From the NCBI GenBank assembly GCA_040954595.2, contig CM082580.2:2594783-2658782 (forward strand): a DNA stretch of 64,000 nt, read 5' to 3'. The notes beneath the pieces are model-generated. The model saw nothing but the letters and a program-made list of their open reading frames with translations, had not been told where the DNA came from and ran no database searches. Positions 1 to 64,000 of the stretch are shown in pieces. The stretch's first letter is position 1; each line of letters opens with the position of its first letter. Both the position numbers and the translations under genes were made by a program. The DNA comes from Balanoglossus misakiensis (taxonomy: Eukaryota > Animalia > Hemichordata).

Positions 1-66
1 AACACTATCTTATAGGCAAAATTAAAAAGTCGTGTTACAATCTATATCACATGACTGTACTTCCAG

Positions 67-24487: not shown

Positions 24488-24518
<31 letters not shown>

Positions 24519-36732: not shown

Positions 36733-36929
36733 TTTGATGATTTCACGCTCTGTATCCGTTTCTATCAGTGGTTACACGTGTTGTGTTCGTTAGTTGGTCA
36801 ACCTAGGTCAAGGGTCAAGAAAATGTGAGTGCGCCCTCACACACGCTGCCGAAGTTGTTCACGTTTTCACATTCGTATTGTACATGCATTGGTGTATGTT
36901 TAGTTCACCTTGCACAGACCAGTAATTGG

Positions 36930-37225: not shown

Positions 37226-38016
37226 AGATAACTATTGTTGTTCATTCTTGTATTATTACAGTCACACATATACATAAAGCTATCCATTTCAAGTATACCT
37301 TACATTTTGTCATTTTGAAAGCTTTGTATAATTAAATACTTGCATGTTATCCTTATTTTAAAAAAAGTGCAAACCCACGGATGAAAACATCAGGGGCTAG
37401 TTATCCTTGGTGTTGTTTGTTGCGAGTTTAAATTGTTAAACATTTTAAATGAACGAATCATATTGTATCAATTTAAAAATTCAAAATGGCCGCCAGTCAA
37501 TGTATTAACTGTATGGAAAAAAATAAAGTAGTAATTTTCATGAAGACAAAGTGGTGAATGAATTATTTTCTTCTTTGTTTCCAAAAAGACTTCTCATAAA
37601 CCTTAATATTGCAAAGAATTAAAAGGTTTGGGTGACTATTATTTTTCTAAAAGCAAGAAACAAAAGAAAAACAAAAAATTATTCCAAGGTGACATTTGCA
37701 CATTTGTCAGTGATAGGTACAGTTCACAGTCTCGTGGGAATTGAAATGTAAATACACCACGATTGCGCCTGTGACATAGGGGATTGTCGTGTGGTACAGT
37801 TGAATGTAAAGTCGGTTCTTTTGATGTCAAATTATTTGGCTTCTCTTTGTGAGTGTAATGAAAGACTACAAAAATTTGGGACAATTCACCCGGCTTCATC
37901 AAATATTACACTATGAATTTAGATCTTAGCATGGCACCAATCATTTCCCAAGGGCAAACCATTCTGCTATCCCCGGCGTGTCCGCTACACTTTTAAATTT
38001 AATGGCTCAGTATAAG

Positions 38017-38499
38017 GGGTAAGCCTAATTCAAGATTCACGTTTCAAGTTTCACGTTTCACGTTCCACAGCCCAAGATTCATATTCTGATTCAGATTCGA
38101 GTCTTGTCACGTCCTTTCGCCGTCTACATTTCATTCACTTGATTCAGAATATAGGAAAACCTATCAATTATATCACAATTACGCTTAAAAGTATCTGTGA
38201 ATACCGAGATTGCAGGCCATGGTGCGATCTCAGGCCTAGGGTCATTCATGTGTTAGAAAATAATAAATAGGGTGCATCTCTTTGAAAAATGTTGTTGAAA
38301 CTGATCGTGAAGAGATACCCGACAATGACGTCACGCGATAATCGAACAGAATATTTGGGGAAACTTGCTTGGGCGCGGGCGGGGATCGAGGACAATAAAC
38401 GATCGTACGCACCCCTGGAGACTCGAATCTGAATCAGAATATGAATCTTGGGCTGTGGAACGTGAAACTTGAAACGTGAATCTTGAATTAGGCTTACCC
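38017..38499. mobile_element. Mutator-like MITE (second copy), 9-bp TSD
   Basis: TSD cagtataag; absent from duplication units 2 and 3 (ctcagtataagtgtgtc). Confidence 0.85.
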
Positions 38500-38507
38500 C
38501 AGTATAA

Positions 38508-39184
38508 GGCTGCATTCACAAACGCCTGGCGGGAGAATTCATTTTTTTACCGGTAATTTTCACATCCCCCCCCCGTACACAACCCGAAATATTTTCAAAT
38601 TCCCCCTTCCGAACTGCTAAAATTTTGGAATCCCCCCCCCCCCATTTTCTTTCACAGAGCACCCGTCTGTCACCTATCTGTCTTGTAAAAAAGAACAGCA
38701 GCGCTCCCATGAAAAGAATTTGAAACTGATGTTTCCCCTCATCAGTGGGTATTAAAACTGAACAATGTTTTTATTTTTTAAGTATTTGTATTCTGTGTTG
38801 GGAGACATTGTAAACCGAGTATTGAAGGGGTATGTTTTTCTTTTATAAAATTTTCTCACGTGGGAGGGGGTGTCACGTAAGAAAATGTTATAAAATACAG
38901 AGCTCAAAGCTGCATTTTAATGAACCCGGCAAAAGCAAATTAACTCAACTACCGGATGACAAATTTAACCGTCGCGCTCAAAGTTATCATGGGGTGGGGG
39001 GCAAGTCCCCTGACCTGGGACACTAGATAAACCAGTCAATGATTGAAAGGTGTTGATGAATGGAGGGGGTGGGTGTGGGAGGCGGTGTCGAAAATTTTGT
39101 AAAATAAAGGGCGCGAAACTGCATTTTTATGGACTTAAAATAAATTCTCCCCCCCCCATTCCAAAGGTGTTTGTGAATGCAGCC
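38508..39184. mobile_element. PIF/Harbinger-type MITE with TAA TSD
   Basis: taa|ggctgcattcacaaac ... gtttgtgaatgcagcc|taa; the site is empty in units 2 and 3. Confidence 0.85.
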
Positions 39185-40136
39185 TAAGTGTGTCTTTCCT
39201 TTTTATCTTGTAGGCCTATTCCAAAGTTCAATAATCATCACTCCGTGGGGAGTGTGAGTCTTTCTTTAGGAGAAGCTTTGAGCTCTCTTTATGTTCTGAC
39301 AATTGGTAAACGCTGTCTCAATGCTCCTCACCCATACCGGTACTGTTCGATTAAAGCCCTGTTTGATTCTAGCTAGTTTCCACTTCATGCTACGGAGGCA
39401 AATAATATTATTAGTTTATGATTTTACGGGTAATTAAATCGACAACTCATTTTACTAAATCGTATTATCACTGTATATTCATGACATTTTGGTGTTTTAA
39501 AGTTGTGCGTGTCGTTGTATTTCGAATAACTATGGAAGACCGGTCACGACATGCGACATGCGACCTGCGACTTCCAAACTGCGACCTGCGAGTTTGTAAA
39601 ACTGCGACATGCGACTTCCAAACTGCGACCTGCGACTTAACAAAAAAACACCCTGCGGCCTACGACTTCAAGCTACAACACGGTCGCTTTGTTCATACAG
39701 GCGACCTGCACACCGTGGCTTCGGATTTGGTCCAAAGATCAGATAACAAAGGTGGCTGTGTGAGTTACAAGCTCCGTATTTTGTAGGATAAAACACTTCG
39801 TGGCATAAATTGAAATCTTGAAACCTGGTTATTTCTACTATGCAGCTATATTTTACAGTTTCTTTTGAAAGATGATTTTTGTATTATTGACTAATTTTTG
39901 GTGTATACAATAAAGTCATATCTACATGTATATGTTACACTGTCTTAACATCTTTAATATTTTATTAATTAAAACTACACATAGAAATGCTCTTCTCTAG
40001 CAAGCCTGGAGTGCTAATAAGTGACCAAAGTAGTTTTTGATAACCAGTACATTCTGCCAGTTTTTTTATTATGTATAATTGTTGTCACAGAAATAATGTA
40101 TGCTTTAGGAATGTCTTCTAAGTGCTTATAATTAAT

Positions 40137-42963: not shown

Positions 42964-45900
42964 ATGTATTACCTGGCAAGTCTCGTTTTTATATTGCTAT
43001 ATTGTGCTTATATTGCTATGTCGGTACAAGGTAAGTGTAGAAAAGACACATGGACTAAAATCTAACCTTCGACGGTGTTTTTGTCAATTTGTGATATTTC
43101 TGTGGCCTTTATCCTTAGTAGATCTATTAGCGTGCAGTTTAGGTAGATCTTATATAAATTTTCTGTGTTAATATAGGATATTTTAAACTGAAGCAATTTA
43201 ATTTGACATTTTCTTTATTTTTGTTCCCAGAATTATATAAAACAGCTCGAGAAATTGCTCTTAAATTTATTATGAACGTATAAAGGCATGCATGTCTCTT
43301 TAATGCACTTTAAAATCATTGCACAGTTAACAATATTCGAGTATTTTTGTCATTCGTGGTATTAAAATTAATTTTGAGAATGCGCTTATGTGTCCTACTT
43401 ATTTTCTTGTTACTTGTCAATATTATTGTAACCAACATATTGTGTTTGGGAGCAATTTTGCGCAAAAACTCCTATTTCAAGAAATCCCTTGTCTGACTGC
43501 CTTGTGATTTGGTTTATAGGGTCATGCCGAAATAGTCGTGGAAATTTTGTACTTGCGATCAGTTCTTCTTGATTTGTGGTCAAAAACTAAAAAATGGCTT
43601 GTCGAAATTTTGTTTGAGGATCCTTGGGTATTCGTATCATGAGTAAACAAATAACTAAGTCAATCCAATCTCTATAACTTAAGCAAACCTGGCTATATTG
43701 CAAATAAATTTGCCTCGTGTGTAAAACGGTTTGTAATAAGTCTTCTCTTGGCTGTCCTAAACAGCTTATAGTTAACAACATTGCAAACCTCATACTTCTG
43801 TCATATTCTATATTCTATTTCTTTTTGTCAGGATGCGATGAGAGATACAGACTGAGAAATGGAGAGGCAGTTCGAGTTAGTTCTCCAAACCATCCAGATG
43901 ATGATCACGACATCATTCTTAAGTGTACTTGGACCCTGACCAATACTGATGGTGGACTAATAATAGTCTGCTTCAGTCATTTCGAGTTAGTCTCGCAAAA
44001 TGACTCCATTTCACTTTTAGACGAGGGAAACGACAGCCATACCAGACAAGTGCTCAAATATACACACGATAATAGGCCTGGTGACCCACTCATCTTTGTA
44101 TCGTTAGGTGATGTCGCTTGGATAGTTTGGACAACAAGTGAGCAAAATACTGGATCATTTCATGCGACTGTAACTGCAGTGGAAAGTGAGTATCAAGTGT
44201 TTCATTTCAGTTATCTCTCAATTGAACAACAACAACAACAACAATGACGGTGTCAAAATGTTTTTACTTTTCTTTCTTTTGAATATCTAATCGTCATCGT
44301 CACCGTCATTATTTGGGTTGGGAGATCGAGATTCCTGTGTCAATACCGCTATTAATAATGCACATTTCAAATGGAAAATTGTCGCCGATCTCCATGTTAC
44401 GTCTACAAAGAAAACCCAGGTGACTTTTATGAAAACGAATCTCCTCACATATGTAGCAAAGGTTTTGAGGGCTATCATTTATCTGAAAATTTGTTCCCAG
44501 AGGCTTATGATGCGTCAGTGTAGAGGGTGGTATACCGGTAGGCCAAGCACACATACTTGCATGAGTGTCATAGTAAAGTCATCCAATGATTGTTTTTTTA
44601 TATAAATTTGTGTACAAAAACACTCAATGTTGGCCTGAAGGTTACACCTGTATATTAAAATCTACTGGATTGAATGGCCAAAGATTTTCTCACATAAGCA
44701 TATTTAATAGTTTGTGTAATGTTCTCGTTTGTACAATATAAATATTCTTCATCAGTGACGTGCGTTAAATCTCAACGTTCACATATGCCAAGGGCACTAT
44801 GCTCGCTGCTTTAATTTCGTACCGTCATTTCTATACATTTCTACCCAATACACTTTTGCATTATATTTCTTATGTAGGTTCCATCTCTGTGGACGCATGT
44901 CCAGTTGTATCAGGTGTAAGTATTAAACCAGACTGCTGAAAGGAATTCTTTTTAAAATGCAACATAAGAGCTCAGTTTGAGTCAAGTGCAGCGCCCCCAA
45001 TGGGCAAGGAACGAGTAAGCTTCAGAACAAGCTCTCCTGACGAGCGAATGAGGGCGTGGTTCAAACGAATATAGTGTTTATTTACCATTCAAAGTTTAGA
45101 TCAAGACAATAAATATTTGTCAATATATATCCGCGCGAAAGACGTGTGCCATCACATATCCGTATATATATGACGTAGACTTGCCCTCTCGTCATTAGAA
45201 TATTCAGATTTCAGGTAATCATATTTTTAAGGACTCTGACAGTAAAACAAAATTGGAAAAATATGATAAATAATATGAAAACTCTGAAAAATAGTTATAT
45301 TTGGTTTACTGTACGACTATCTTGGAACTTTTATAGACTTTCAAAAGTCAAAATGAACTAACAAATGCTTCATTGTGTCATTTCTGAACTCCGCCAGGTG
45401 CTTGAACCATTTCATCTAGCATCTGCTATGATCAAGGAATTAATGGATCTAAAGCTGCCTCTAGATGCAAGTCGGAACATAGCTAAAGGCAAGCGATTTC
45501 ACATTTCTGACAAAAATTAGACGTTCCAGTTCACGATGTCCAGACGCTGGAAACTTTGCAATGAACATATATTTGAACATCATGTGTTAGACAAATGTTG
45601 AAGTGATGCCCGAATATAATCTATATATGTAATGAATAACGGACAATTGGGAAATGCATATTACTCATTCTGCCTCTCAGTTTCAATTTCAAATCTTACA
45701 GAAATCCTGATACTTCTGGATGAAGGCATTGTGACTCTTCCGTCGCCGGCCGATAATGAAACAACAGACGCGGTGACCAAGTTCCTTCTAAACGCAACTG
45801 ATTCCCTCGCGAAGTCTGTTCTACGTGGGATGGAACCCGGCAGTGGGCCAGTTATCATACATTCAGAATTCTTTCAATTGCATTTGGAAAGCGATTCTGT

Positions 45901-47592
45901 GGTGCATCTTACCAACACCTCTTTATTACTCCGAGGCGGTAATGGTGTGAAATTTCCACCGGCAGAGAAGATGTTCTCCAATTTAACCTCTGGAGCAATT
46001 GTTAACAGGATTGTAAGAATCTAACCCTTGTTGTTGAACATGTTATCGCTTCTCTCTCAGTCTCTATTTCCTTAACCACACTCTGTAAACACATGCCAAT
46101 GAAGTTTATAATACATTATCGCCCATAGGTTAGTGTTTTTAACAGAAGTTTGCTTCTTCAAGACTACAATGGACGGAACACATTTCCAAGAAAATTTGTG
46201 TTGAGCTTGTCGTTCACTGATAGAGACGGCAAAGATTTAGAAGGTATTTATATCATCACAATATTACATACAACAGGATACAATCTAACATTCAAAGATT
46301 TGTGTGAACTCTACATAACTTGGTTTGTCTGTAAATATGGCTATGCAATATATATTTTCTTTTCAGCATAAAAGTTATTCTCTATTCACTCTTCCAGTGA
46401 AAGATACTACAGAAGACATTGAAATCACATTTGCTAGTGAAGCCCCTGAGCCAGAAACCGTCTCATTGATCGAAGGTGTGTACACTGAAGTCCATGACGT
46501 CACATATTTTGGATTTAATGTCGAGGTAGAGGTAGGTGAATGGAAATAAAACTAGTGAAATCAATTCTGATTATGTATACTGCTTTCTGCTATCAGCGAG
46601 CCAATACTAACAGATGTTAGCAAAAAGTGTTTATATTTCTCACAAAATTAATATTCATTCTATATATTCTATCGTCGCAGATAGCATGGTTGTTCCAACC
46701 ATTTATCATTAAGTTTGAAAATTGCAAACCTCTGTACGGAAATACAACAGTGTACGTCTTCAATGAACTTACGGCTTACTCTGACAAATACGTTGGATAC
46801 CAGTTCGCTGTTGATATGGAATTTGCAGGAAATTTTTCCACAGTGTTCATCCCAGAATACTATTTCTTAAGAACTGGAGAATATTATTTCACATTTACCA
46901 TTCCCCACAGTAAGTGTCCATGTTTAACATTTACCTTACACTGCACTGAAGTATTGTAAACATTTGCTGTTTAAAGCACATTTAATAGCTTGTGCATTGT
47001 CATGCATCATTTAAATTTACAGGTTCAAACCTATTATTTGTATCAGAACCTATCCTATCAATTCATGTAGTAAGAAAGTCTGAACTACTAGGCCAAAATG
47101 CATGAGTCTACATCCGGGGTTTTAAGAGTCGACGTCACCACCACGTCAAAAAGAATACAACTTCTTTGAGGTACCCTAACTTCTTTCTATTCTTTCCATT
47201 TTGTAGAGCAAGATATCCAGTTTGCATACACTGTCATACAAACTAGGTGTGATTATCTGAATATCCAGACTGACAGCTGGGAGAGTGACGGTTGCCAGGT
47301 ATGCACAATGGTTCCTCAAAAAATAATTTGGATTTATCAGAATCAATTTTGAAATTTGAACGTAACCAAATTCAATGCATCCTTTAGATATGACACAACT
47401 CAAACAGTAGGCAGGAGAAATTTGAGAACCTGTAATTCTTTGTCATATTACTCACAGAAAAGTTGCAACTTTTCAGCATTTATTTTAAATCCGTAGATTT
47501 CACCATTATCAAACGTCACCTCCACTGTGTGTCTGTGTAACCACCTGACGACATTTACATCCGGAATGGCGACAACAATGATATTACCCTAG
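42964..47592 (+). CDS. Secreted CUB + polycystin-1-like (PKD1L-type) GAIN/GPS protein with no transmembrane domain, copy 1 (~510 aa)
   Basis: Exons 42964-43030 (signal peptide MYYLASLVFILLYCAYIAMSVQG), 43832-44185 (CUB: SSPNHP..C.WTL..F.HFEL..D.I..SFHATV), 44878-44915, 45398-45488 (GC donor), 45681 (or 45702)-46012, 46129-46243, 46398-46525/46531, 46681-46909, 47207-47298 (TRCDYL..W.SDGCQ) and 47497-47592 (TVCLCNHLTTF...TAG) join in frame. Confidence 0.82.
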
Positions 47593-47802
47593 AAAACGAT
47601 TGGTTACATTCTAACCCATGATGCATTGTGATTTCCAACATGGCGTTGAACCAGTTGGTCCCTCTACATAATGCAGAGTGACCACATGAGGGCGATATGA
47701 ACAGAATTTCATTTTTATCAGAGGAATCCGATGGATTTTTGGCCACTTAGGCCTCCAGAGTTATTTATCATGCTTCATTCGTCCTTACCATATTCACACA
47801 AA

Positions 47803-49260
47803 TTATAATATGTAACAGGTTTGACCTGAGTGCGAGCGCAGCAAGCTTTCGTGTAGTATACTAGTATTCACATTGTTGTCAACACTCCACTTTCCACATG
47901 CATGCTTCGTCAACTTTCTCTTGGTCAACTGAAAGATTTGCAATACTTGCCCCCATAGATACAGGGCGCACTTTTCGAACTCGTAGGTATATAGAGATAT
48001 ACATTCTATTTCCCATAATCCCTCATTCTCGTACACGCGCTATCTAAAGTGCTCACTACGCTTCGGCCGCTCGTGCTGCGCTCGCTATTATGGGAAATAG
48101 AATGTATATCTATGGGGGCATCCATTAATTTTGATCTCTTCCTTAAAACGTAAAACCAATGTCCTTATTCATCGCAAATCCTACTCAGAAATGTACACCG
48201 TCCACAAGACCATCAAAGACGGTGGAAAATTAAGTTGGAAAATGAAATTTAGTAGCGTTTCTGGGCACTTTCTGGGCCGTTTTCGAGAGCCCGACGGTCG
48301 GCGCCATATTGAATCACGCGAAATCTTAATCACGCAAAATCACGCGAGACTTCGAAATTACTTTACGCATGTAAGGGGCCACCACCACCAACATTTATTC
48401 TTTATGAGCCTAAACGTTTAACCACAACAAAACTACCACAAGGACCTTGTGAGAATGAAACACACCGATCAAAGATAATCTGAAGCTAATAATGAAACCC
48501 ACCGATCAAAGATAATCTGAAGCTATCAGAGAATGGAACGTCTTAAATTTGGCAAAGTATTGCAAAGCCTTCAGTTGACCATCAGAAAGTTGATGAAGCA
48601 TGCATGTGGAAAGTGGAGTGTTGACAATAATGTGAATATATACATGATAGCTTGCTGCGCTCGCACTCAGGTCAAACCTGTTACATATTATTATATCATG
48701 CTACCGTCTGCAATTCTGATTGGACGAGAGCTCAATCCAGCGATGCTAAAATACTCATAATGCACTGCTGGCAGTGGTAAAACGGGCCCCTGAACTAGCA
48801 TACGGCTGCAAAAATGTGCGGTTAAACCACAGTCGCGCGTGTTTAAACCAAATAAATAAAACAAAAATACTGTTGAATTAACGGACGTTTTATTTTGGAA
48901 CTGCTCTGTGGAAATATTTGTCACTTTGCCACGCGCGATGCCCGTCTTGTCACTTTTTGTCGTCTGCTTCATGTTTAATGCTCGATCCCGGCTGGATCCC
49001 GGCCGCTCGTGTTTACATTCATCGTCGCCATGTTGGTTCACGATCGTAATTTCTCTTTCTGACGCCGTTTCGGTAAGAAAATGACACTGATATCATGCCA
49101 CAAAAACAATTGTTGATATAATATAATAGCAATAAAACACCCCAGCCATGGTATACCACTCGATTTTGACCAGTTCAAAATATACGCTCGTGCGTATATG
49201 TCGTGAACTGGTCAAAATCTCGTGGTATACCATGGCTGGGGGTGTTTTATTGCTTAAATT
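47803..49260. mobile_element. Composite insertion downstream of copy 1: element with ~150-bp TIRs (47805-48690) plus a family A element
   Basis: taatatgtaacaggtttgacctgagtgcgagcgcagcaagct is inverted at ~48645-48690; the whole block is absent at the paralogous site in unit 2 (~60330). Confidence 0.75.
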
Positions 49261-50989
49261 ATATCATAGTGTCATTTAGGCCCAACCACCATCATCACTA
49301 TTCTCTGCCGAGTCTTTGGAATATATGCCATGAGTAATTTATTCAGATACATTGAATTCGTTATTCACAAATGTGTAAATCATTATTCGATTGATTTTTT
49401 TGTCAACTTTATACAAAGGAAAACTGTGATTAATTTTCAATTCGAAAAATTGTTGGATTCCAGATTGAAATACAATCATTATTATGTTGGTTTTTTATGT
49501 ATCTCGTGGTTGTTAATGTTAGATTTCTATTTCAAATTAAATCAATATGTTTGCATATTTACACACTCAACTCAATAGTAATTTTAGTAGCCTAGTAGCC
49601 TATTGTTGTTCATTCTTGTATTTTTACAGTCACACATATACATAAAGCTACCCATTTCAAGTATACCTTACATTTTGTCATTTTGAAAGCTTTGTATAAT
49701 TAAATACTTGCATGTTATCCTTCTTTTAAAAAAAGTGGAAACCTACGGATGAAAATATCAGGGGCTAGTTTATATCCTCGGTGTTGTTTGTTGCGAGTTT
49801 CAATTGTTAAACATTTTAAATGAACGACTCATATTGTATCAAATTCAAAATTCAAAATGGCCGCCAATCAATGTGTTAACTGTAAGGAGAAAAAATAAAG
49901 TGGTAATTTTCACGAAGACAAAGTAGTCAATGAATTATTTTCTTCTTTGTTTCCAAAAAGACTTCTCATAAACCTTAATATTGCAAAGAATTAAAAGGTT
50001 TGGATGACTATTATTTTTTTAAAAGCAAGAAACAAACAAAAACAGAAAATTATTCCAAGGTGACATTTGCACATTTGTCAATGATAGGTACAGTTCACAG
50101 TCTCGTGGGAATTGAAATGTAAATACACCACGATTGGGCCTGTGACATAGGGGATCGTCGTGTGTTACAGTTGAATGTAAAGTCGGTTCTTTTGATGTCA
50201 AATTATTTGGCTTCTCTTTGTGAGTGTAATGAAAGACTACAAAAATTTGGGACAATTCACCCGGCTTCATCAAATATTACACTATGAATTTAGATCTTAG
50301 CATGGCACCAATCATTTCCCGAGGGCAAACTATTCTGCTATCCCCGGCGTGTCCGCTACACTTTTAAATTCAATGGCTCAGTATAAGTGTGTCTTTCCTT
50401 TTTAACTTGTAGGCCTATTCAAAAGTTCAATAGTCATTACTCCGTGGGGAGTATGAGTCTTTCTTTAGGAGAAGCTTTGAGTTCTCTTTATGTTCTGACA
50501 GTTGGTAAACGTTGTCTCAATGCTCCTCACCCATACCGGTACAGTTCGATTAAAGCCCTGTTGGATTCTAGCTAGTTTCCACTTCATGCTACGGAGGCAA
50601 ATAATATTATTAGTTTATGATTTTACGGGTAATTAAACTGACAACTCATTTTACTAAATCGTATTATCACGGTATATTCATGACATTTTGGTGTTTTAAA
50701 GTTGTGCGTGTCGTTGTATTTCGAATAACAAAATCTCTTTCTTCTTTTCTCTTAACAAATTGTTTAAAATTAGCTACACAATCGTCTCAGTGCGTTGTAC
50801 ATAGCCCGAAAAAGTAAATTAATAAGTAAATAGCTGGATAAAATAATTAAACAAAAAACTACAATCACACACACATTACACATAAAACTGAGGTTGTTTC
50901 TTTGTAACTGCTACAATGAACGTCATTGCATAATTGTGGTTGTCACTTTGTATGACACTGTAGTGTAACTGCTACAATGTATATCATTG

Positions 50990-51793
50990 CTAAACAAACA
51001 ATCTTGACCGTTTAGGCCGTCACACCTGGGCAACGTCTGTGAAACATATTTTATTTTCATATGGGTTCGGGCATGCCTGGATTTCCCAGGAAATAGGCAA
51101 TAAGCATTTGTTCCTTTCAGCATTTGAGACAAGAATTTCAGATATTTTGAAGCAACAATGGAAGTCACATTGTTCGTCCAAAACCAAACTCCGTACATAC
51201 ACACTTTTTAAATCATTGTTACACCCTGAAAAGTATCTCAATGTCAACTGTACACGAAATGTCAAACAAATTCTTGCATGTTTTCGCTGTTCTGCCCTTC
51301 CTCTTGCAATAGAGGAGGGAAGACATCAGAACGTGGACGTTTCAGAGAGACACTGTAGGCTATGCTCTGGTGAACAAATAGAAGACGAGTATCACTTTCT
51401 ACTTGTTTGTCCCTTATATGATAATCTTAGAAAACAATATATTGGTGACATTAAGAATCCTCACTTCCAAATGTTTGTAAATTTCATGAGTGCATCAGAA
51501 TCCACCAAGATACTTTCGCTATGTAATTATGTTTACAATGCTTTTAAACTTAGAGAAACTGTGTTAAAAAAACCATCAATCCATACAATACTGTTAAGTT
51601 CCTCAGTTTGTATCCTGAGTATGTAATTCCACACATCTGCTGGTTGATGTTGTCACTTGTACTATTTGAGTACATGTATTATTTAATTCTTTTTTGTACA
51701 ATCTTCTGGTTACCTTTATACCCCCTTGCTTATGGGCTGGAGGCCTTGAAAAGCAATAAACGTGCACTATTGTGCACCTGAACCGAACTGAAC
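50990..51793 (+). mobile_element. 5'-truncated LINE 3' end (RTE-X-like) with C-terminal CCHC zinc finger
   Basis: KLRTYTLFK...EKYL...FRCSALPLAIEEGRH...C..C...IEDEYHFLLVCPLY..LRK; AATAAA at ~51755 and a ctgaa-repeat tail; inserted into a minisatellite that is uninterrupted in unit 3. Confidence 0.78.
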
Positions 51794-51936
51794 TATATCA
51801 TTGCATCATTGTGGTTGTTACTGTGCATTAGCTGAAGTATAACTGTAAAATCATTGCAACCAAAATGTATTGTTACTTTATATCACTTTTCCAATTTACT
51901 TTGATTGTGTGAGTGAGACCCCCCCCCCCCTGGTCT

Positions 51937-53644
51937 TGTTAACGCCCCTCCATCCTTCGGACGTTTACCTCATCGGCTTCTGTGGGGAATCAGCCACGTC
52001 CGAAGGCTGAGAGTGTAAATTCTCTCCATCTCCTTCTCCACCCAACATATTCATAGAGTCTGAGAGAGGTACCCGGCAGATCGTAAACCTTTCGTAGACA
52101 GAGACTTGCAACAAGTTTTCCGAGTAACACAAAGTTCTGGTTTATTACTGGTCACACGTAAGAATTACACGACTCGATCCATGCTCGTTGACTCCCATCA
52201 CGGATCTCCGGTGATAATGGTGTGATCTCAAATTTCACCACACCTTATTAATACGTTAGTCAAGTATTAAGTCATAAAAGGAACACGTCATCTTAATATT
52301 TCTTAAACATGAACTTAGCGCGTGATATCTCTATCGCGTTCGGACATGTATCAATTACACAATCTTGTTTACTCTGGGTCAAGTACCTATGTCAATACTG
52401 GAATAAGGGACCGTTCAGTTTTTACGGCCGGGGGGGGGCCGGCAAAATCCAGGAGGGGGTCACTTAAATTTTGAAGTCCACAAGGGGAGGGGGGGTCATC
52501 TGTTTTTTTTAAACGTTTAGGGGGGGTCACATACATTTGCCACCGAACTTTTGCTTTTGAGTCCACAAAATTGCAGTTTCGCACCCTTTATTTTACAAAA
52601 TTTTCTAATGTGGGAGGGGGACACCCCCTCCCACACCCACCCCCTTCATTCTCCGCTACATTTCATTTTTTGCTGGTTTGTCTAGTGTACCAGGGCAGAG
52701 TGCTAGCCACCCCAACCCCACCGATGATAATATTTAACAAAGTGAATACATAAAGGAGAATAATTGTTTAAACCATTTTGCATAACTGATAGTTTCGCGC
52801 TGCATCTTCTATATACTAGAAGTTTTATAAATGATGTCATGACAAGATGACGCCAAATCTTCTAACTTTGAGTGGAGTGGCAAAAAGTAAAATTGGTCCT
52901 CCCAAACATTGAGATAATTTGCTTTTGAGTTCATTAAAATGCAACTTCGCGCTACATATTTTACAAAATTTTCTTATGTGGGCGGGGACACCCCCTCCCA
53001 CACCCACCCCCTCCATTCTTCGCCACATTGCATTTATTCACTGGTTTGTCTAGTGTACCAGGGAAGACTTCTTGCCACCACACCCCGATGCTTACTTTGA
53101 GTGGAGTGGCAAAATTAAAATTTGTCCTCCCTAACATTGAGTTAATTTGCTTTTGAGTTCATTACATTACAACTTTGAGCACCGTATTTTACAAAATTTT
53201 CTCACACCCACCCCCCCCCCTCCACTTTTCTTGTTTTACCGATTCTAGCAACTATTGTATTGACTTGTCATTTTAATTTGTTCATAGATTTCTTTATTGC
53301 AACGATATACTATTATATACTTCAATAATACTTTAAGAAATTTATAATTGAGGTGTGAGGAGCCTCATTCCCTTTATTGCATACAGTGTACATAGGATCA
53401 GGACGGCGAATGTTTTGGGCGTGGGGGGGGGTCATCATATTTTTGGGTCTGTCAAAGGGGGGTCATCATTTTTTGGTGCTGGGTGAAGGGGGGGTCGGCC
53501 TGATTTTGAGAACCGATGACACAAAGTTGGCGGGCCCCCCCCCCCTGCCGTAAAAACTGAACGGTCCCTAAAATCATATACAAGTGAATGACTTCTTACG
53601 TAATCATAGAAAAGATCTATGAGCGTTAAAACTCAGTCGTGACA
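51937..53644 (-). mobile_element. Possible solo LTR (Gypsy-like) interrupted by a Harbinger MITE
   Basis: On the minus strand it begins TGTCACGA and ends GGGCGTTAACA, with an internal AATAAA. ctgg flanks both sides (3 nt offset on the left), and the block is absent in unit 1 (cccctggaacagtgcg). Confidence 0.5.
52407..53568. mobile_element. PIF/Harbinger-type non-autonomous element (~1.16 kb), TAA TSD
   Basis: taa|gggaccgttcagtttttacggc ... gccgtaaaaactgaacggtccc|taa; an inverted copy lies at 62192-63371. Confidence 0.87.
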
Positions 53645-54297
53645 CTGGAACAGTGCGAACAATGTTGTGGTACTAAGTAGAAAAAGTCGTATGCGAGAAT
53701 TTTAGAAGGCCCTCCCCTAAAAATTGTTAATACCATTTTCATTGATAGTGTTGTTACTGTGGATGGTTGTTGTCAACGTACAAAACAGACTGTGTCAGCA
53801 AGCAAGATAAAAGAACAGAAAAATATTCCCAGGGGACACATTAGTCAATTCTAGGAACAGCTGAATGTAACATCGGTTCTTTTGATGTCAAATTATTTGG
53901 ATTCTATCAGTGAGTATTATGAAAATATCAAGTCGATAGAGATGACATCACCAAGCACTTACTGCTGAAAAATATTTATTTGGGAAAGCTTGACAAAAAA
54001 TTAGTTGAGTACGCATAAAATTATTCATTTTCAGTAATGCACTAAAATTATACTGAGTAATCATTTGCACAAGCGCAAGTTAGAGATTCAACCTAACTAA
54101 AACAATACCCCAACAAATTGTCCACATGTCCACGGACAGTTACATGAAATTGTTCCATTCACTTTCCATAATACATACTACTTGCGTGAATCGAGGCGTA
54201 CATAGGCCTACATGCACTTCAGTAAATATATACTATGTTAGCAATATCTTACACCAACTCTCATAGGTTTAATGCACATTTATAACACCGTGGGATA

Positions 54298-54751
54298 ATA
54301 TTATGAGGTTATTACGAAAATACCGCAAAGTATGCACTCGGACATTAGCGCCGTGTATCGCCCGACACGTAGCGGAGGGCGATGCGCTGCGCTAATGTCC
54401 GAGTGCATACTTTGCGGTATTTTCGTAATAACCTTATTATTATACATCTTACATCTCCGTTAGTTCTTGTGTTGCATGTAACTTGGCTTTCAAAACGCCC
54501 AAAATGCCGATACAATCGATCGAAAACCGCTCAGTTGACTCAGTGAGCAGCCATCTTTTGTTTTTTGTTTACGTGCGTTGGAGTGGGGGTGTCTTGAAAC
54601 CGTCCGCATAGCAACGCATACCTGTACACAGTGAGTTGGGGCGCCTTGAAACTTAAGGCGTATTTAACACGCGTTCCGTTGGTACCATTCCGTACGGCTT
54701 TTTTAGTGCACGCTAAATTCTATTGTTCTCGGTGCCAGATGTATAATAATA
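54298..54751. mobile_element. Family B repeat, inverted copy
   Basis: Reverse complement of 24832-25272; empty site in unit 1. Confidence 0.78.
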
Positions 54752-55489
54752 GTTGTCATTCATCACTCGCTTTAAAGCAATCCTGTCAAAGTTTTAAGGG
54801 TATATTTGTGAATGTTTTATGCATTTAAGATTTCGGAAAATAGAAGACATTTATCATCGAGATTCTGACCATTGGCATTTTGAAAACAAAACATAATTCA
54901 CTTAATAATGTTGCTATTTTCGAAACATCTGACATCACTTTCTGGTCTTTTTTGGCGGAAGTCCATATACATGCATCTTTCTTTCACGGACTTGACTTTG
55001 TTGAGTGTGAAGCAAATACTGTATATTTGACCTATGAACTTAAGACTTTTGTCTTCTTTCTTTCTTTCTTCTTTTCTTTCTTTTGTATGTATTACTAACC
55101 AAGTGTTCTACCGTTCACCATGAGGGGATGGACTTGACTAGTGCGAATGCACTATTTTTCCTACCTCCTTTTTTCACTTTATCAGTACATTTTTCACCAT
55201 TCGATGTAAAAATTGAAAGTGAAATAAAATTGAATTGAATTGAATTGAATTGAAATTGAATTGAATGGGTTTTCTCTCAATTATTTCTTACATTATTCAT
55301 ACATGCCATTCATCTGACATTGGGAAATATAACGGAATATATAATTTCATGCAGATCATATTTCAATTTAACTTGAAATCTGCTATTCACACGTTTTCTT
55401 GTTTATGTCTCTATGGCAACACTGGTATAGTTAAATGAGTGAGTTTATAACTCTCTAGATCACAACAAGTCTTGATAGAAACACTGAAT

Positions 55490-58400
55490 ATGTATTACCT
55501 GGCAAGTCTCGTTTTTATATTGCTATATTGTGCTTATATTGCTATGTCGGTACAAGGTAAGTGTACAAAAGACACATGGACTAAAATCTAACCTTAGACG
55601 GTGTTTTTGTCAATTTGTGATATTTCTGTGGCCTTTATCCTTACTAGATCTATTAGCGTGCAGTTTAGGTAGATCTTATATATATTTTCTGTGTTAATAT
55701 AGGATATTTTAAACTGAAGCGATTTAAGCTGACATTTTCTTTATTTTTGTTCCAAAAATTTTATAAAACCGCTCGAGAAATTGCACTTAAATTTATTATG
55801 AACGTATAAAGGCATGCATGTCTCTTTAATGCACTTTAAAATCATTGCACAGTTAACAATATTCGAGTATTTTTGTCATTCGTGGTATTAAACCTAATTT
55901 TGAGAATGCGCTTTTGTGTCCTACTTATTTTCTTGTTACTTGTCAATATTATTGTAACCAACATATTGTATTTGGGAGCAATTTTGCGCAAAAACTCCTA
56001 TTTCAAGAAATCCCTTGTCTGACTGCCTTGTGATTTGGTTTATAGGGTCATGCCGAAATAGTCGTGGAAATATTGTACTTGCGATCAGTTCTTCCTGATT
56101 TGTGGTCAAAAACTAAAAAATGGCTTGCCGAAATTTTGTTTGAGGATCCTTGGGTATTCGTATCATGAGTAAACAAATAACTAAGTCAATCCCATGTCTA
56201 TAACGGAAGCAAAACTGGCTATATTGCAAATAAATTTGCCTCGTGTGTAAAACGGTTTGTAATAAGTCTTCTCTTGGCTGTCCTAAACAGCTTATAGTTA
56301 ACAACATTGCAAACCTCATACTTCTGTCATATTCTATATTCTATTTCTTTTTGTCAGGATGCGATGAGAGATACAATCTGAGAAATGGAGAGGCAGTTCG
56401 AGTTAGTTCTCCAAACCATCCAGATGATGATCACGACATCATTCTTGAGTGTACTTGGACCCTGACCAATACTGATGGTGGACTAATAATAGTCTGCTTC
56501 AGTCATTTCGAGTTAGTCTCGCAAAATGACTCCATTTCACTTTTAGACGAGGGAAACGACAGCCATACCAGACAAAGGACCACACATACACACGATAATA
56601 GGCGTAGTGTCCCACCCATCTTTGTATCGTTAGGTGATGTCGCTTATATAATTTGGACATCAAGTGAGCAAAATACTGGATCATTTCATGCGACTGTAAC
56701 TGCAGTGGAAAGTGAGTATCAAGTGTTTCATTTCAATTATCTCTCAATTGAAGAACAACAACAACAATGACGGTGTCAAAATGTTTTTATTTTTCTTTAT
56801 TTTTAATATCTTATCGTCATCGTCACCGTCATTATTTGGGTTGGGAGATCGAGATTCCTGTGTCAATACCGCTATTAATAATGCACATTTCAAATGGAAA
56901 ATTGTCGCCGATCTCCATGTTACGTCTACAAAGAAAACCCAGGTGACTTTCATGAAAACAAATCTTCTCACATATGTAGCAAAGGTTTTGAGGGCTATCA
57001 TTTATCTGAAAATGTGTTCCGAGAGGCTTATGATGCGTCAGTGTAGAGGGTGGTATACCGGTAGGCCAAGCTCACATACTTGCATGAGTGTCATAGTAAA
57101 GTCATCCAATGATTGTTTTTTTATAATAATAAATTTGTGTACCAAAACACTCAATGTTGGCATGAAGGTTACACCTGTATATTAAAATCTACTGGATTGA
57201 ATGGCCAAATATTTTCTCAAATAAGCATATCTAATAGTGTTTGTGTAATGTTCTCATTTGTACAATATAAATATTCTTCATCAGTGACTTGCGTTGAAGC
57301 TCAACGTTCAGATGCCCAGGGCACTATGCTCGCTGCTTTAATTTCGTACCGTCATTTCTATACATTTCTACCCAATACACTTTTGCATTATATTTCTTAT
57401 GTAGGTTCCGTCTCTGTGGACGCATGTCCAGTTGTATCAGGTGTAAGTATTAAACCAGACAGCTGAAAGGAATTCTTTTTAAAATGCAACATAAGAGCGC
57501 AGTTTGAGTCAAGTGCAGCGCCCCCAATGGGCAAGGAACGAGTAAGCTTCAGAACACGCTCTCCTGATGAGCGAATGAGGGCGTGGTTCAAACGAATATA
57601 GTTAACAATGATTATTTACCATTCAAAGTTTAGATCAAGACAATAAATATTTGTCAATATATATCCGCGCGAAAGACGTGTGCCATCACATGGACTAGGT
57701 CATTCGATGACTTAGACTTGCCCTCTCGTCATTAGAATATGTAGATTTCAAGTAATCAAATTTTTAAGTACTCTGACAGTAAAACAAAATTGGAAAAATA
57801 TGATAAATAATATGAAAACTAGTTATATTTTGTTTACTGTACGACTATCTTGGAACTTTTATAGACTTTCAAAAGTCAAAATGAACTAACAAATGCTTCA
57901 TTGTGTCATTTCTGAACTCCGCCAGGTGCTTGAACCATTTCATCTAGCATCTGCTATGATCAAGGAATTAATGGATCTAAAGCTGCCTCTAGATGCAAGT
58001 CGGAACATAGCTAAAGGCAAGCGATTTCACATTTCTGACAAAAATTAGACGTTCCAGTTCACGATGTCCAGACGCTGGAAACTTTGCAATGAACATATAT
58101 TTGAACATCATGTGTTAGACTAATGTTGAAGTGATGCCCGAATATAATCTATATATGTAATGAACAACGGACAACAGGGAAATGCATATTACTCATTCTG
58201 CCTCTCAGTTTCACTTTTAAATCTTACAGAAATCCTGATGCTTCTGGATGAAGGCATTGTGACTCTTCCGTCGCCGGCCGATAATGAAACAACAGACGCG
58301 TTGACCAAGTTCCTTCTAAACGCAACTGATTCCCTCGCGAAGTCTGTTCTACGTGGGATGGAACCCGGCAGCGGGCCAGTCACCATTGATTCAGAATTCT

Positions 58401-60117
58401 TTCAATTGCATTTGGAAAGCGATTCTGTGGTGCATCTTACCAACACCTCTTTATTACTCCGAGGCGGTAATGGTGTGAAATTTCCACCGGCAGAGAAGAT
58501 GTTCTCCAATTTAACCGCTGGAGCAATTGTTAACAGGATTGTAAGAATCTAACCCTTGTTGTTGAACATGTTATCGCTTCTCTCTCAGTCTCTATTTCCT
58601 TAACCACACTCTGTAAACACATGGCAATGAAGTTTATAATACATTATCGCCCATAGGTTAGTGTTTTTAACAGAAGTTTGCTTCTTCAAGACTACAATGG
58701 ACGGAACACACTTCCAAGAAAATTTGTGTTGAGCTTGTCGTTTACTGATAGAGAAGGCAGAGAGTTAGAAGGTATTATATTATCATCACAATATTGCTTT
58801 CTAATATATGGTATGAGTTGGAATCGGATAAAATCTAACATTGAAAGATCTGTATGAACTCTACATAACTTGGTCTGTCTGTAAATATGGCTATGCAATA
58901 TATATTTTCTTTTCAGCATAAAAGTTATTCTCTATTCACTCTTCCAGTGAAAGATACTAAAGAAGACATTGAAATTACATTTGCTAGTGAAGCACCTGAG
59001 CCAGAAACCGTCTCATTGATCGAAGGTTGGTACACTGAAGTCCATGACGTCACATATTTTGGATTTAATGTCGAGGTAGAGGTAGGTGAATGGAAATAAA
59101 ACTAGTGAAATCAATTCTGATTATGTATATTGCTTGTGCTATCGGCGAGCCAATACTAACTAACTGTTAGCAAAAAGTGTTTATATTTCTCACAAAAATA
59201 ATATTCATTCTATATATATTTTATCGTCGCAGATAGCATGGTTGTTCCAACCATTTATCATTAAGTTTGAAAATTGCAAACCTCTGTACGGAAATACAAC
59301 AGTGTACGTCTTCAATGAACTTACGGCTTACTCTGACAAATACGTTGGATACCAGTTCGCTGTTGATATGGAATTTGCAGGAAATTTTTCCACGGTGTTC
59401 ATCCCAGAATACTATTTCTTAAGAACTGGAGAATATTATTTCACATTTACCATTCCCCACAGTAAGTGTCCATGTTTAACATTTACCGTACACTGCACTG
59501 AAGTATTGTACATATTTGTTGTTTAAAGCACATTTAATAGCTTGTGCATTGTCATGCATCATTTAAATTTACAAGTTCAAACCTATTTTTTGTATAAGAA
59601 CCTATCCTATCAATTCATGTAGTAAGAAAGTCTGAACTACTAGGCCAAAATGCATGAGTCTACATCCGGGGTTTTAAGAGTCGACGTCACCACCACGTCA
59701 AAAAGAATACAACTTCTTTGAGGTACCCTAACTTCTTTCTATTCTTTCCATTTTGTAGAGCAAGATATCCAGTTTGCATACACTGTCATACAAACTAGGT
59801 GTGATTATCTGAATATCCAGACTGACAGCTGGGAGAGTGACGGTTGCCAGGTATGCACAATGGTTCCTCAAAATATAATTTGGATTTAGCAGAATCAATT
59901 TTGTAATTTGAACCTAACCGAATTCAATGCAGTAGGCAGGAGAAATTTGAAAACCTGTAATTCTTTGTCATATTACTCACAAAAATGTTCCAACTTTTCA
60001 GCATTTATTTTAAATCCGTAGGTTTCACCATTATCAAACGTCACCTCCACTGTGTGTCTGTGTAACCACCTGACGACATTTACATCCGGAATGGCGACAA
60101 CAATGATATTACCCTAG
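55490..60117 (+). CDS. Secreted CUB + polycystin-1-like GAIN/GPS protein with no transmembrane domain, copy 2 (~510 aa)
   Basis: Exons 55490-55556, 56358-56711, 57405-57442, 57926-58016, 58209-58540, 58657-58771, 58948-59075/59081, 59233-59461, 59759-59850, 60022-60117 (TAG); same lengths, phases and splice sites as copy 1, with no stops or frameshifts seen. Confidence 0.82.
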
Positions 60118-62191
60118 AAAACGATTGGTTACATTCTAACCCATGATGCATTGTGATTTCCAACATGGCGGCGAACCAGTTGGTCCCTCTACATAATGCA
60201 GAGTGACCACATGAGGGCGATATGAACAGAATTTCATTTTTATCAGAGGAATCCGATGGATTTTTGGCCACTTAGGCCTCCAGAGTTATTTATCATGCTT
60301 CATTCGTCCTTACCATATTCACACAAATTATTTTATAGATAATAATCTATCATAGTGTCATTTAGGCCGAACCACCATCATCACTATTCTCTGCCGAGCC
60401 TTTGGAGTATATGCCATGAGTTATTTATTCAGAAACATTGAATTTGTTATTCACAAATGTGTAAATCATTATTATTCAATTGAATTTGTTGTCAACTTTA
60501 TACAAATGAAAACTGTGATTGTAAGTGCAAGTCCTCCCTGATTGGATGGCTGTGTGTGCAGGTGCACATGCACATAGTGGTTATCCAATATGCAAATTTC
60601 CTTGTCACTATAAATTTGCACCTCGCCAGTGTGCAAGTTTCATTTTGCCACGTCAGGCCTTCTAGGCTACATGTTTGTGACCACTGCACTACATGCTTTT
60701 TGAGCCCCTGAAAGCGTCACCATCTGAGGTAAGACTTACCTGTTTTATTTAGCGATAAAGAGCGGTCTTTTCAAGAGAAGCAGCGACTATCCAGGACGCA
60801 GACTACTTCATTTATAAACCATTAAATTTGAGTGATTGAATAGAATTGATTTGAATTTACTTACCTGTAAACGCTGTATTTTTGGAATTTGCTTTGTAAT
60901 TGAGTTTGAACTTCTGTATCGGCATTTTACATTTTCTTTGAATACTTACTTGAATTTATTTTGTCTATGTATTTGTTTATACAGAACCGTCTTTTACCCG
61001 TACGCGTGTTATACCAGTGTTATACCAGTATTAGAACCGTGTTATTACGTCGTGCACGGTCTATTTTGTATTCACCGAACAGTTTGCTCCTCGTAGAGAG
61101 TAAAATAAAAGGAGAATTTTTATACAACACGAGTGTCCAGAGTGTGTACTCCAGGGGCCCATGCAAGTAGGAATTGGATCATACAGTGATTAATATTCAA
61201 TTCGAAACAATCTTGGATTCCAGATTGAAATACAATCATTATTATGTTGGTTTTCATGTATCTCGTGGTTGTTAATGTTAAATTTCTATTTCAAATTAAA
61301 TCAATATGTTTACATATTTACACACTCAACTCAATACTAATTTTAGTAGCCTAGTAGCCTATTGTGGTTCATTCTTGTATTTTTACAGTCACACATATAC
61401 ATAAAGCTACCCATTTCAAGTATGGGCTACCTTACATTTTGTCATTTTGAAATCTTTGTAAAATTAAATACTTGCATGTTAACCTTCTTTTAAAAAAAGT
61501 GGAAACCTACGGATGAAAACATCAGGGGCTAGTTATCCTTGGTGTTGTTTGTTGCGAGTTTCAATTATTAAAAATTTTAAATGAACGACTCATATTGTAT
61601 CAAATTAAAAATTCAAAATGGAGAAAAAATAAAGTGGTAATTTTCATGAAGACAAAGTGGTGAATGAATTATTTTCTTCTTTGTTTCCAAAAAGACTACT
61701 CATATACCTTAATATTGCAAAGAATTAAAAGGTTTGGATGACTATTATTATTCTAAAAGCAAGAAACAAAAAGACAGAAAATTATTCCAAGGTGACATTT
61801 GCACATGTGTCAATGATAGGTACAGTTCACAGTCTCGTGGGAATTGAAATGTAAACACACCACGATTGGGCCTGTGACATAGGGGATCGTCGTGTGGTAC
61901 AGTTGAATGTAAAGTCGGTTCTTTTGATGTCAAATTATTTGGCTTCTCTTTGTGAGTGTAATGAAAGACTACAAAACTTTGGGACAATTCACCCGGCTTC
62001 ATCAAATAATACACTATGAATTTAGATCTTAGCATGGCACCAATCATTTCCCAAGGGCAAACCATTCTGCTATCCCCGGCGTGTCCGCTACACTTTTAAA
62101 TTCAATGGCTCAGTATAAGTGTGTCTTTCCTTTTTATCTTGCAGTCCTATTCCAAAGTTCAATAATCCGTGGGGAGTGTGAGTCTTTCTTA

Positions 62192-63371
62192 GGGACCGTT
62201 CAGTTTTTACGGCGGGGGGGGGGCAAGTTTGAGTCATCGGTTTTCAAAATCAGGCCGACCCACCTTCACCCAGCACCAAAAAATGATGACCACCCCCATT
62301 TTGACAGACCCAAAAATATGATGACCCCCCCCCCCCATGCTGAAAACATTCGCCGTCCTGATCCTATGTACACTGTATGCAATAAAGGGAATGAGGCTCC
62401 TCACACCTCAATTATAAATTTCTTAAAGTAATTAAAGTATATAATAGTATATCGTTGCAATAAAGAAATCTATGAACAAATTAAAATGACAAGTCAATAC
62501 AATAGTTGCTAGAATTGGTAAAACAAGAAAAGTGGCGGGGGTGGGCGTGGGAGGGGGTGTCTTAAGAAAATTTTGTAAAATACGGTGGTCAAAGTTGCAT
62601 TTAAATGAACTCAAAAGCAAATTAACTCAATGTTAGGGAGGACAAATTTTAAGTTTGCCACTCCACTCATAGTAAGCATCGGGGTGGGGCGGTAAGAAGT
62701 CTGCCCTGGTACACTAGACAAACCAGCGAATAAATGTAATGTGGCGAAGAATGGAGGGGTGGGTGTGGGAGGGGGTGTCCGCCTCCCACATAAGAAAATT
62801 TTGTAAAATATGTAGCGCAAAGTTGCATTTTAATGAACTCAAAAGCAAATTATCTCAATGTTTGGGAGGACCAATTTAAATTTTTGCCACTCCGCTCAAA
62901 GTTAGAAGATTTGGCGTCATCTTCGTCATGACATCATTTATAAAACTTCTAGAATATACAAGATGCAGCGCGAAACTATCAGTTATGCGAAATGGTTTAA
63001 ACGATTATTCTCCCTTATGTATTTACTTTGTTAAATATTATCATCGGTGGGGTTGGAGTGGCAAGCACTCTGCCCTGGTACAATAGACAAACCAGCAAAA
63101 AATGAAATGTGGCGGAGAATGAAGGCGGTGGGTGTGGGAGGGGGTGTCCCCCTCCCAAATTAAAAAATTATGTAAAATAAAGGGTGCGAAACTGCAATTT
63201 TGTGGACTCAAAAGCAAACGTTCGGTGGCAAAAGTATGTGACCCCCCCCCCCTAAACGTTTAAAAAACCCAGATGACCCCCCCCCTTTGGACATCAAAAT
63301 TTAAGTGACCCCCCCCCCTGGATTTTGCCGCCCCCCCCCCCCCCCTTCGGCCATAAAAACTGAACAGTCCC
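62192..63371. mobile_element. PIF/Harbinger-type element, inverted second copy
   Basis: gggaccgttcagtttttacgg ... ccataaaaactgaacagtccc; flanks tta/ata; empty site (tctttaggagaagc) in units 1 and 2. Confidence 0.82.
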
Positions 63372-63804
63372 ATAGGAGACGCTTTGAGTTCTCTTTATGT
63401 TCTGACAATTGGTAAACACTGTCTCAATGCTCCTCACCCATACCGGTACAGTTCGATTAAAGCCCTGTTTGATTCTAGCTAGTTTCCACTTCATGCTACG
63501 GAGGCAAATAATATTATTAGTTTATGATTTTACGGGTAATTAAATCGACAACTCATTTTACTAAATCGTATTATCACTGTATATTCATGACATTTTGGTG
63601 TTTTAAAGTTGTGCGTGTCGTTGTATTTCGAATAACAAAATCTCTTTCTTCTTTTCTCTTAACAAATTGTTTAAAATTAACTACCGGTACACAATCGTCT
63701 CAGTGTATTGTACATAGCATGCAAAAGTAAATTAATAAGTACATAGCTGGATAAAATAATAAAACCAAAAACTACAATCACACACATTACACATAAAACT
63801 GAGG

Positions 63805-64000
63805 TTGTTTCATTGTATTACACTGTAGTGTAAATGCTACAATGTACATTATTGCATAATTGTGGTTGTTACTTTGTATTACACTGTAGTGTAACTGCTA
63901 CAATGTACATCATTGTGGTTACTTTGTATTACAGTGTAGTGTAACTGCTACAATGTACATCATTGCATCATTGTGGTTGTTACTGTGCATTAGCTGAAGT
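63805..64000. repeat. Minisatellite (~50-60-bp unit: tgtattacactgtagtgtaactgctacaatgtacat.att...gtggtt)
   Basis: At least three imperfect units; the paralogous array is at ~50900-50990 and ~51795-51845. Confidence 0.75.

Follow-up and report, generated by a model that had tools for sequence, protein, structure and literature searches.

An anchor-free GAIN/GPS protein family with shuffled recognition heads in acorn worms

A GAIN domain without a membrane half

What role can a GAIN domain have in a protein that carries no membrane anchor? All GAIN domains analysed in the paper that defined the fold immediately precede a transmembrane (TM) helix (PMC3321182). The question is raised by a locus of the acorn worm Balanoglossus misakiensis. 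The window, a stretch of 64,000 nucleotides from contig CM082580.2 (GenBank assembly GCA_040954595.2, positions 2,594,783 to 2,658,782 of the forward strand), harbours two tandem genes, each of which encodes a predicted signal peptide, a single CUB domain and a GPS-containing GAIN domain, and closes shortly after the HL/T cleavage site (the slash marks the cut). They belong to an expanded family of apparently dedicated genes whose GAIN/GPS products are free of an anchor and carry recognition heads that have been shuffled; it is so far known from Ptychodera flava and the window. No description of a TM-less GAIN/GPS family or of hemichordate polycystin expansions was found in the literature covered, which took in a minority of the subscription journals, and the available parts of PMC13197933, PMC9672506, PMC12300799, PMC12716839, PMC13554239 and PMC4890752 describe no such family.

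Two intact genes that stop after the cleavage site

The two genes occupy tandem 5.1-kb segments that are 95.4% identical to each other (n = 2 in the 64-kb window; coordinates in Table 1). Their models were derived from DNA alone, with some edges refined by alignment to the relatives described below. Neither ten-exon frame contains an internal stop. Eight introns obey the GT-AG rule, and a GC donor (AAG/gcaagc, the slash marking the splice point) is required for intron 4. Homology prefers an exon 5 acceptor 21 nucleotides further downstream (45702/58230) and an exon 7 donor six nucleotides further upstream (46525/59075), giving a protein of 506 residues in place of 515. Intron divergence between the two genes is about 3%. 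Pfam matches to CUB in exon 2 (E 1.1e-5) and to GPS in exon 10 (E 1.2e-4) both exceed the curated cut-offs, and the four cysteines, the tryptophan and the HL/T of the GPS align in both copies. A preliminary description of this DNA had read two intact ten-exon genes for a signal peptide, a CUB domain and a GAIN/GPS region; the open frames and the profile matches bear this out, with two exon edges shifted. In both proteins, 19-residue windows with a hydropathy above 1.5 are confined to the N-terminus. The REJ domain, which is about 600 residues long and is absent in PKD1L3, has no Pfam match in exons 2 and 4–10 of a protein that is just 506 residues in all. Three cysteines of copy 1, at residues 69, 148 and 383, lie beyond the canonical CUB and GPS pairs and could form extra or inter-chain disulfides.

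The ending is the same in both genes. Residue +1, the threonine of HL/T, is encoded at 47548/60073, and the 14-codon tail leads to a TAG. Between HL/T and this stop neither copy has a GT donor, and a weak GC (47569/60094) is the only alternative. The DNA covered downstream comprises the 7.9-kb spacer after copy 1 and only 3.9 kb after copy 2 within the window. None of the 139 plus-strand stop-to-stop frames of at least 28 residues in the two 3′ spacers matches models for PLAT, the PKD channel, the seven-transmembrane (7TM) families or GPS, and acceptor-led hydrophobic frames in the first spacer number one, against a mean of 1.9 after shuffling. Copy 1 is moreover bounded downstream by copy 2, with no TM or PLAT exon in the spacer between them. 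The stop 14 codons past HL/T, the missing GT donor and the missing TM or PLAT exon, all of them claimed beforehand, are thus confirmed in both copies and spacers. The TM1, the PLAT domain and the up to 11 TM helices that are expected after the GPS in PKD1, PKD1L and REJ proteins are absent, as is the class B2 7TM region expected after the GAIN domain in G protein-coupled receptors (GPCRs) of the adhesion type. In neither copy, nor in any of the 23 relatives that reach the GPS, does GAIN directly precede a first TM helix. Read-through of the TAG into a TM helix was considered and ruled out, as a TGA follows 12 codons further on; a glycosylphosphatidylinositol anchor was likewise ruled out, the C-terminus lacking a long hydrophobic stretch by crude hydropathy. 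No canonical AATAAA occurs within 900 nucleotides of either stop.

An older family in Ptychodera flava

A HMMER search of 1.84 billion representatives with exon 5 returned 26 matches, one of which (P0021) was dropped as a spurious match to a repeat protein. Profile searches and cluster look-ups enlarged the set of relatives to 38, namely 37 predicted RefSeq models of P. flava, among them XP_070548561.1, XP_070545132.1 and XP_070560920.1, and one fragment. The GPS is reached in 23 of them, the other 15 being partial models that stop earlier. All 23 end 0–23 residues past the site (median 8). No TM helix was detected in the 38 relatives, none of which has a 19-residue window with hydropathy above 1.77 past residue 60, and PLAT, PKD-channel and 7TM families are missing from all of the 35 that were scanned. 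The 23 proteins represent 20 at 90% identity, are encoded on 10 scaffolds and are diverged: across the 160 residues that precede the site, pairwise identity runs from 25.6% up to 100%, with a median of 47.8% (P0015 and P0018, which are gapped models, left out).

The GAIN region of the window proteins is 36–50% identical to that of most relatives, and the closest relative reaches about 50%. The window pair stands apart on a long branch (0.73) in a tree built from 30 GAIN regions, amid several P. flava subfamilies with good support, which makes the anchor-free state far older than the duplication seen in the window. The tandem copies are a recent duplication within an older family, and on this comparison the GAIN/GPS genes are apparently not recent truncated duplicates. 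The preliminary description had favoured predicted secreted, anchor-free proteins over recent truncation and had proposed a search for TM-less relatives with a comparable stop; the endings of the 23 GPS-reaching relatives agree with that reading.

Stop positions are shared within the family. Tails of ten residues are common to P0029, P0030/P0038 and P0032, paralogues that are 58–71% identical, and a four-residue tail is common to two relatives at 88% identity. Such sharing among diverged paralogues argues against intron read-through as the general cause of the ending. Several loci have X1 and X2 isoforms, which in RefSeq usually denote transcript support. Other searches added little: exon 5 found no match by word search among proteins of 194–2000 residues, an Atlas search with the same exon gave no usable match, and NCBIfam had no meaningful match for six relatives. 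A profile search of proteins of 630–2000 residues, with 7989 candidates scored, yielded no TM-bearing relative, which is weak evidence.

A GAIN fold with a minimal tail

AlphaFold models were made of two relatives, P0012 and P0028 (mean predicted local distance difference test score, pLDDT, 80.7 and 82.5), whose identity to copy 1 is 49.7% and 42.6%, from alignments of 19 and 30 rows. The structural check that had been suggested for GAIN recovered the fold in both. In a wide search the P0012 model matches the GAIN domain of latrophilin-3 with Z 15.1 and its top nine rows are all GAIN, and the P0028 model matches latrophilin-1 (4dlq_A) with Z 17.9 and a root-mean-square deviation of 3.8 over 237 residues, its top 11 rows again being all GAIN. 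Inserted in the B part is a beta sandwich some 115 residues long, presumably of polycystin type, that has weak structural matches only (Z ≤8); no polycystin chain occurs in the fold-match lists of either model. A prediction of a two-copy complex of P0028 residues 20–379, run without an alignment, scored 0.01 and counts neither for nor against. Both models also match axonemal doublet-microtubule proteins (8glv_AE, 9fqr_Hn, 9y6s_9f) with Z 8–11 over more than 200 residues, which may hint at an intracellular GAIN-like fold.

The cleavage triad, H followed by L or I and, after the cut, T or S, is kept in 18 of the 23 GPS-reaching relatives. Either the triad or the entire last strand is lost in P0011, P0019/P0027, P0024 and P0026, which would serve as natural controls for cleavage and folding studies. 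Across 25 sequences, position +1 is T in 21, position +3 is F in 22, and small residues occupy +2 and +4. Conservation ceases past +4 in these sequences, and the tails of several members reach no further than +4 or +5; T-x-F is all that the family retains of the tail. The conserved tethered-agonist sequence expected of adhesion GPCRs is not present. Where GAIN structures have been solved, the strand is still held tightly after cleavage (PMC3321182).

Swapped heads and a rapidly changing CUB domain

The N-terminal heads of the relatives are diverse. Pfam identifies C-type lectin (P0006, P0024), pentraxin (P0009), SRCR (P0015), PAN (P0005, P0029) and F5/8C domains (P0019, P0023, P0037, P0039), often mounted on HYR repeats, of which many relatives have one to six together with many N-glycan sites. 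CUB is found in none of the relatives. This variety, and the absence of CUB elsewhere in the family, indicates that heads have been swapped. The CUB domain lies on a symmetric phase 1-1 exon, as would be expected for exon shuffling.

Protein change is faster in the CUB head than in the GAIN region. Between the two copies the CUB domain has 13 non-synonymous and no synonymous codon changes (non-synonymous divergence, dN, 0.065; synonymous divergence, dS, 0), and the GAIN region has 12 and 7 (dN 0.016, dS 0.030, dN/dS about 0.5), a contrast with a Fisher p of 0.025. The changes are clustered: the 11 differences among 26 within residues 96–124 were reached in none of 20000 permutations. On alignment to PCPE-1, residues 96–107 of this hot spot correspond to a strand and the loop with the L7 cysteine of canonical CUBs. 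The same alignment shows an altered acidic pattern in L5 and L9 and no second disulfide (L5-L7). In Ca2+-binding CUBs the ligand site is formed by the odd-numbered loops, which does not hold for all CUBs (PMC8051872).

Head-like exons also occur elsewhere in the window. At positions 1-5214 (+), F5/8C (fucolectin-like) exons alternate with chitin-binding-like ones, and an exon resembling the C-terminus of PCSK9 comes after them; the chitin-binding and PCSK9 matches fall below the curated cut-offs. These exons are 38–59% identical to head domains of P. flava P0011, P0019, P0023 and P0039.

Neither polycystins nor adhesion GPCRs

The products of the window genes and of their relatives would work like an ectodomain shed from a polycystin or an adhesion GPCR, but they belong to neither family: TM helices, PLAT, REJ and 7TM are absent. 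They share with PKD1L2, PKD1L3 and the sea urchin proteins SpREJ1-10 a GAIN domain with a full GPS and HL/T, and SpREJ1-3 likewise have lectin heads (PMC1934368); unlike the PKD1L/REJ family, the acorn-worm proteins have no REJ domain, TM helix, PLAT domain or channel region. SpREJ10 has no TM helix and no GPS either (PMC1934368), whereas the acorn-worm family keeps the GPS and loses all that follows. Several relatives bear RefSeq names such as 'polycystin-1-like protein 2/3' and 'sperm receptor for egg jelly-like', and the nearest Atlas clusters are characterized by GPS (24% of members), GPS with PLAT, or REJ with GPS. A polycystin-1-like origin of the family is accordingly named here as plausible but indirect. 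The GPS had been described beforehand as PKD1L-like: names and clusters do point to polycystins, and the searches yielded no TM-bearing relative from which to build a tree.

With adhesion GPCRs (latrophilin-1/3, GPR126/ADGRG6, BAI3) the family has in common the GAIN fold, as modelled for two relatives, and variable adhesion heads on a constant GAIN. It differs in the missing 7TM region, in the inserted B-part sandwich and in the reduced tail. Membrane-free ectodomain isoforms have been predicted for about half of the human adhesion-GPCR genes (PMC11039983). These soluble human N-termini are transcript variants of genes that encode full receptors (PMC11039983), whereas the acorn-worm genes are apparently dedicated and their heads are swapped.

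A working analogy is offered by collectins, ficolins and FREPs, soluble pattern-recognition proteins that carry a variable head on a constant stalk. Like them, the acorn-worm proteins are secreted (by prediction), have lectin-type heads and have undergone a lineage-specific expansion. The constant part is GAIN rather than collagen or fibrinogen.

The surrounding locus

The gene pair is framed by three copies of a flank repeat, X (Table 1). The resulting order X-gene-X-gene-X would fit duplication by unequal crossing-over. The last nucleotides of the window (63956-64000) match the spacer at 51794-51838, and a third unit may therefore follow beyond the window. Frames at 50994-51623 and 37100-37231 (+) resemble retrotransposon remnants and have no Pfam match; we take them to be a LINE-like C-terminal zinc-finger region and a reverse transcriptase-like fragment. 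Upstream of the pair, at about 24200-36800 (-), lie exons of the housekeeping gene SDA1. Further upstream, pentraxin/LamG-like exons, at least four of them, lie at 6824-18485 (-); the series is broken by a long inverted repeat (9143-14384, arms 99% identical) that is probably a transposon.

Table 1. Positions in the window of the two genes, their parts and the flanking elements
Feature	Position	Strand	Remarks
Copy 1 gene	42964-47592	+	10 exons, ~506 aa; open frame, splice sites, alignment to relatives
Copy 1 exons 1-5	42964-43030, 43832-44185, 44878-44915, 45398-45488, 45702-46012 (or 45681)	+	
Copy 1 exons 6-10	46129-46243, 46398-46525 (or 46531), 46681-46909, 47207-47298, 47497-47592	+	
Copy 2 gene	55490-60117	+	10 exons; protein 94.9% identical to copy 1
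Copy 2 exons 1-5	55490-55556, 56358-56711, 57405-57442, 57926-58016, 58230-58540	+	
Copy 2 exons 6-10	58657-58771, 58948-59075, 59233-59461, 59759-59850, 60022-60117	+	
GC donor of intron 4 (GC-AG intron)	45488-45494; copy 2 at 58017	+	Exon 4/5 junction aligns with relatives
Exon 1, predicted signal peptide	42964-43030; copy 2 55490-55556	+	Lone hydropathy peak, 19-aa mean up to 2.09
Exon 2, single CUB domain, symmetric phase 1-1 exon, without second disulfide	43832-44185; copy 2 56358-56711	+	Pfam CUB; alignment to PCPE-1 CUB
CUB divergence hot spot, residues 96-124	44050-44136; copy 2 56576-56662	+	11/26 aa differences between copies
GAIN domain (exons 4-10), comprising a helical A part, a B sandwich that holds a ~115-aa inserted beta sandwich, and GPS	45398-47592; copy 2 57926-60117	+	Identity to relatives and models of relatives
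HL/T site, 14-residue tail (47548-47589), TAG	47542-47592	+	Copy 1; Pfam GPS
HL/T site, identical 14-residue tail (60073-60114), TAG	60067-60117	+	Copy 2
Probable 3′ untranslated region common to both copies	47593-47806	+	0.9% diverged, against ~3% in introns
Repeat-rich ~1.4-kb insertion interrupting copy 1 3′ region	47807-49244		
First X flank repeat (upstream of copy 1)	37232-39530	.	92-98% identical to other X copies
Second X flank repeat (between genes)	49423-50989	.	
Third X flank repeat (after copy 2)	61183-63915	.	

What the proteins may do

The explanation preferred here, with moderate confidence, is that of an old acorn-worm family of secreted recognition proteins, derived from a polycystin-1-like ectodomain, in which a swappable head sits on a constant GAIN body and what remains after cleavage is a short structural plug. 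A polycystin-1-like gene would have lost the membrane part belonging to its ectodomain and thereby founded the family. Its products would be secreted as glycoproteins into mucus, coelomic fluid or matrix. Most members would still self-cleave at HL/T, the short T-x-F piece staying in place as the last strand and not acting as a signal. What the head binds would vary, the surfaces of microbes or of other foreign matter being the most likely targets and gametes possible ones, and the GAIN body would serve as a constant stalk or docking part.

A number of points weigh against this explanation. Ligand, tissue, secretion and cleavage, and with them the function as a whole, are deduced from sequence. 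Behind the selection signal are 13 codons in a single pair of sequences; gene conversion by a third copy would resemble it, as would two haplotypes that the assembly had placed in tandem. The CUB domain is without its second disulfide, and CUBs that do not bind Ca2+ need not bind through loops L5, L7 and L9 (PMC8051872). The TM-bearing parent gene was not retrieved, so that the polycystin origin rests on RefSeq names and Atlas clusters. The GAIN fold was modelled for two relatives of the window's protein; in both models the residues after HL are unplaced (pLDDT < 50), which lends no support to a tail that remains docked, and the alignments are shallow. Five of the 23 relatives have lost the cleavage triad. 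Some tails resemble intron read-through and 15 of the 38 models are partial, which makes the annotation of the family imperfect, and the relatives are predicted RefSeq models from one species.

Other explanations can be set against the same evidence. That the gene pair is an artefact or debris is very unlikely: the copies would be truncated or non-functional duplicates, exon 9 would be spliced to distant TM exons, or haplotypes would have been assembled in tandem. The DNA-only models, the GC donor in intron 4, the lack of a canonical poly(A) signal near the stops, the partial state of 15 of the 38 relatives and an intron divergence attainable by heterozygosity all leave room for such an origin. 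Yet both frames are intact over ten exons, the GAIN dN/dS is about 0.5, copy 2 bounds copy 1 with no TM exon between, and the ending is common to a family whose members are 26–50% identical and share stop positions; tandem haplotypes would in any case alter copy number and not architecture. Improbable to the same degree is a structural protein of mucus or matrix, in which heads and HYR repeats would cross-link an extracellular layer and GAIN would be a stable terminal module only. The HYR repeats and N-glycan sites of many relatives would suit such a protein, as would the highly secretory hemichordate epidermis (PMC13554239), but the window genes have no HYR, the heads span many recognition types and the CUB head is changing quickly.

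Two further possibilities give the tail or its loss a signalling role. In a split receptor or decoy, which is unlikely, the short tail would drop out after self-cleavage and the empty GAIN groove would accept in trans a stalk belonging to a polycystin-like or adhesion-GPCR fragment in the membrane, so that a single signalling half could be engaged or silenced by many soluble heads. Tails of often only four to eight residues, the complete absence of the last strand in three members, the unplaced tail in both AlphaFold models and a constant body with a variable head suited to a modular receptor are consistent with this. Dissociation and reassociation of the N- and C-terminal fragments (NTF and CTF) have been reported for latrophilin-1 (PMC12300799), and CTF-only transcripts for human adhesion-GPCR genes (PMC11039983). 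Against it stand the absence of a partner gene within the window, none having been searched for elsewhere, the predicted unfolding of GAIN on loss of the strand (PMC3321182) and the shallow alignments, which may by themselves account for the low pLDDT. A more elaborate form, quite unlikely, would have acorn worms convert the polycystin ectodomain into a set of free self-cleaving adaptors, with dozens of swappable lectin, pentraxin or CUB heads on a constant GAIN, that trade their plug strand for a stalk on one polycystin or GPCR fragment common to them all in the membrane, yielding a combinatorial two-gene receptor assembled extracellularly. The least probable of these readings is a carrier whose head targets the protein and whose cleaved 14-mer is released to activate a polycystin or an adhesion GPCR. 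Both copies have an intact triad and identical tails, and polycystin-1 stalk peptides of 7–9 residues can activate a stalkless CTF in trans (PMC11458180). However, the cleaved strand normally remains bound (PMC3321182), and a soluble protein would have no anchor through which force could pull it out. The release of an agonist-like peptide, as first proposed, finds no support as a family function, with tails of 0–23 residues and only +1, +3 and the small residues at +2 and +4 kept.

Implications for GAIN biology and acorn-worm recognition

The family bears on a general problem. Current models explain GPS cleavage by its effect on the membrane half. Some 20 diverged genes keep the GAIN domain, and 18 of 23 models the triad, in proteins that have no such half, which points to a role of the domain or of its cleavage that is independent of a tethered agonist. 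As natural soluble GAIN proteins with tails of 0–23 residues, with and without the triad, they could be used to find out how much of the last strand folding and cleavage require, and whether one strand can replace another in trans. The family may also represent an unrecognised, diversified set of recognition proteins in a deuterostome group whose immunity has been little studied.

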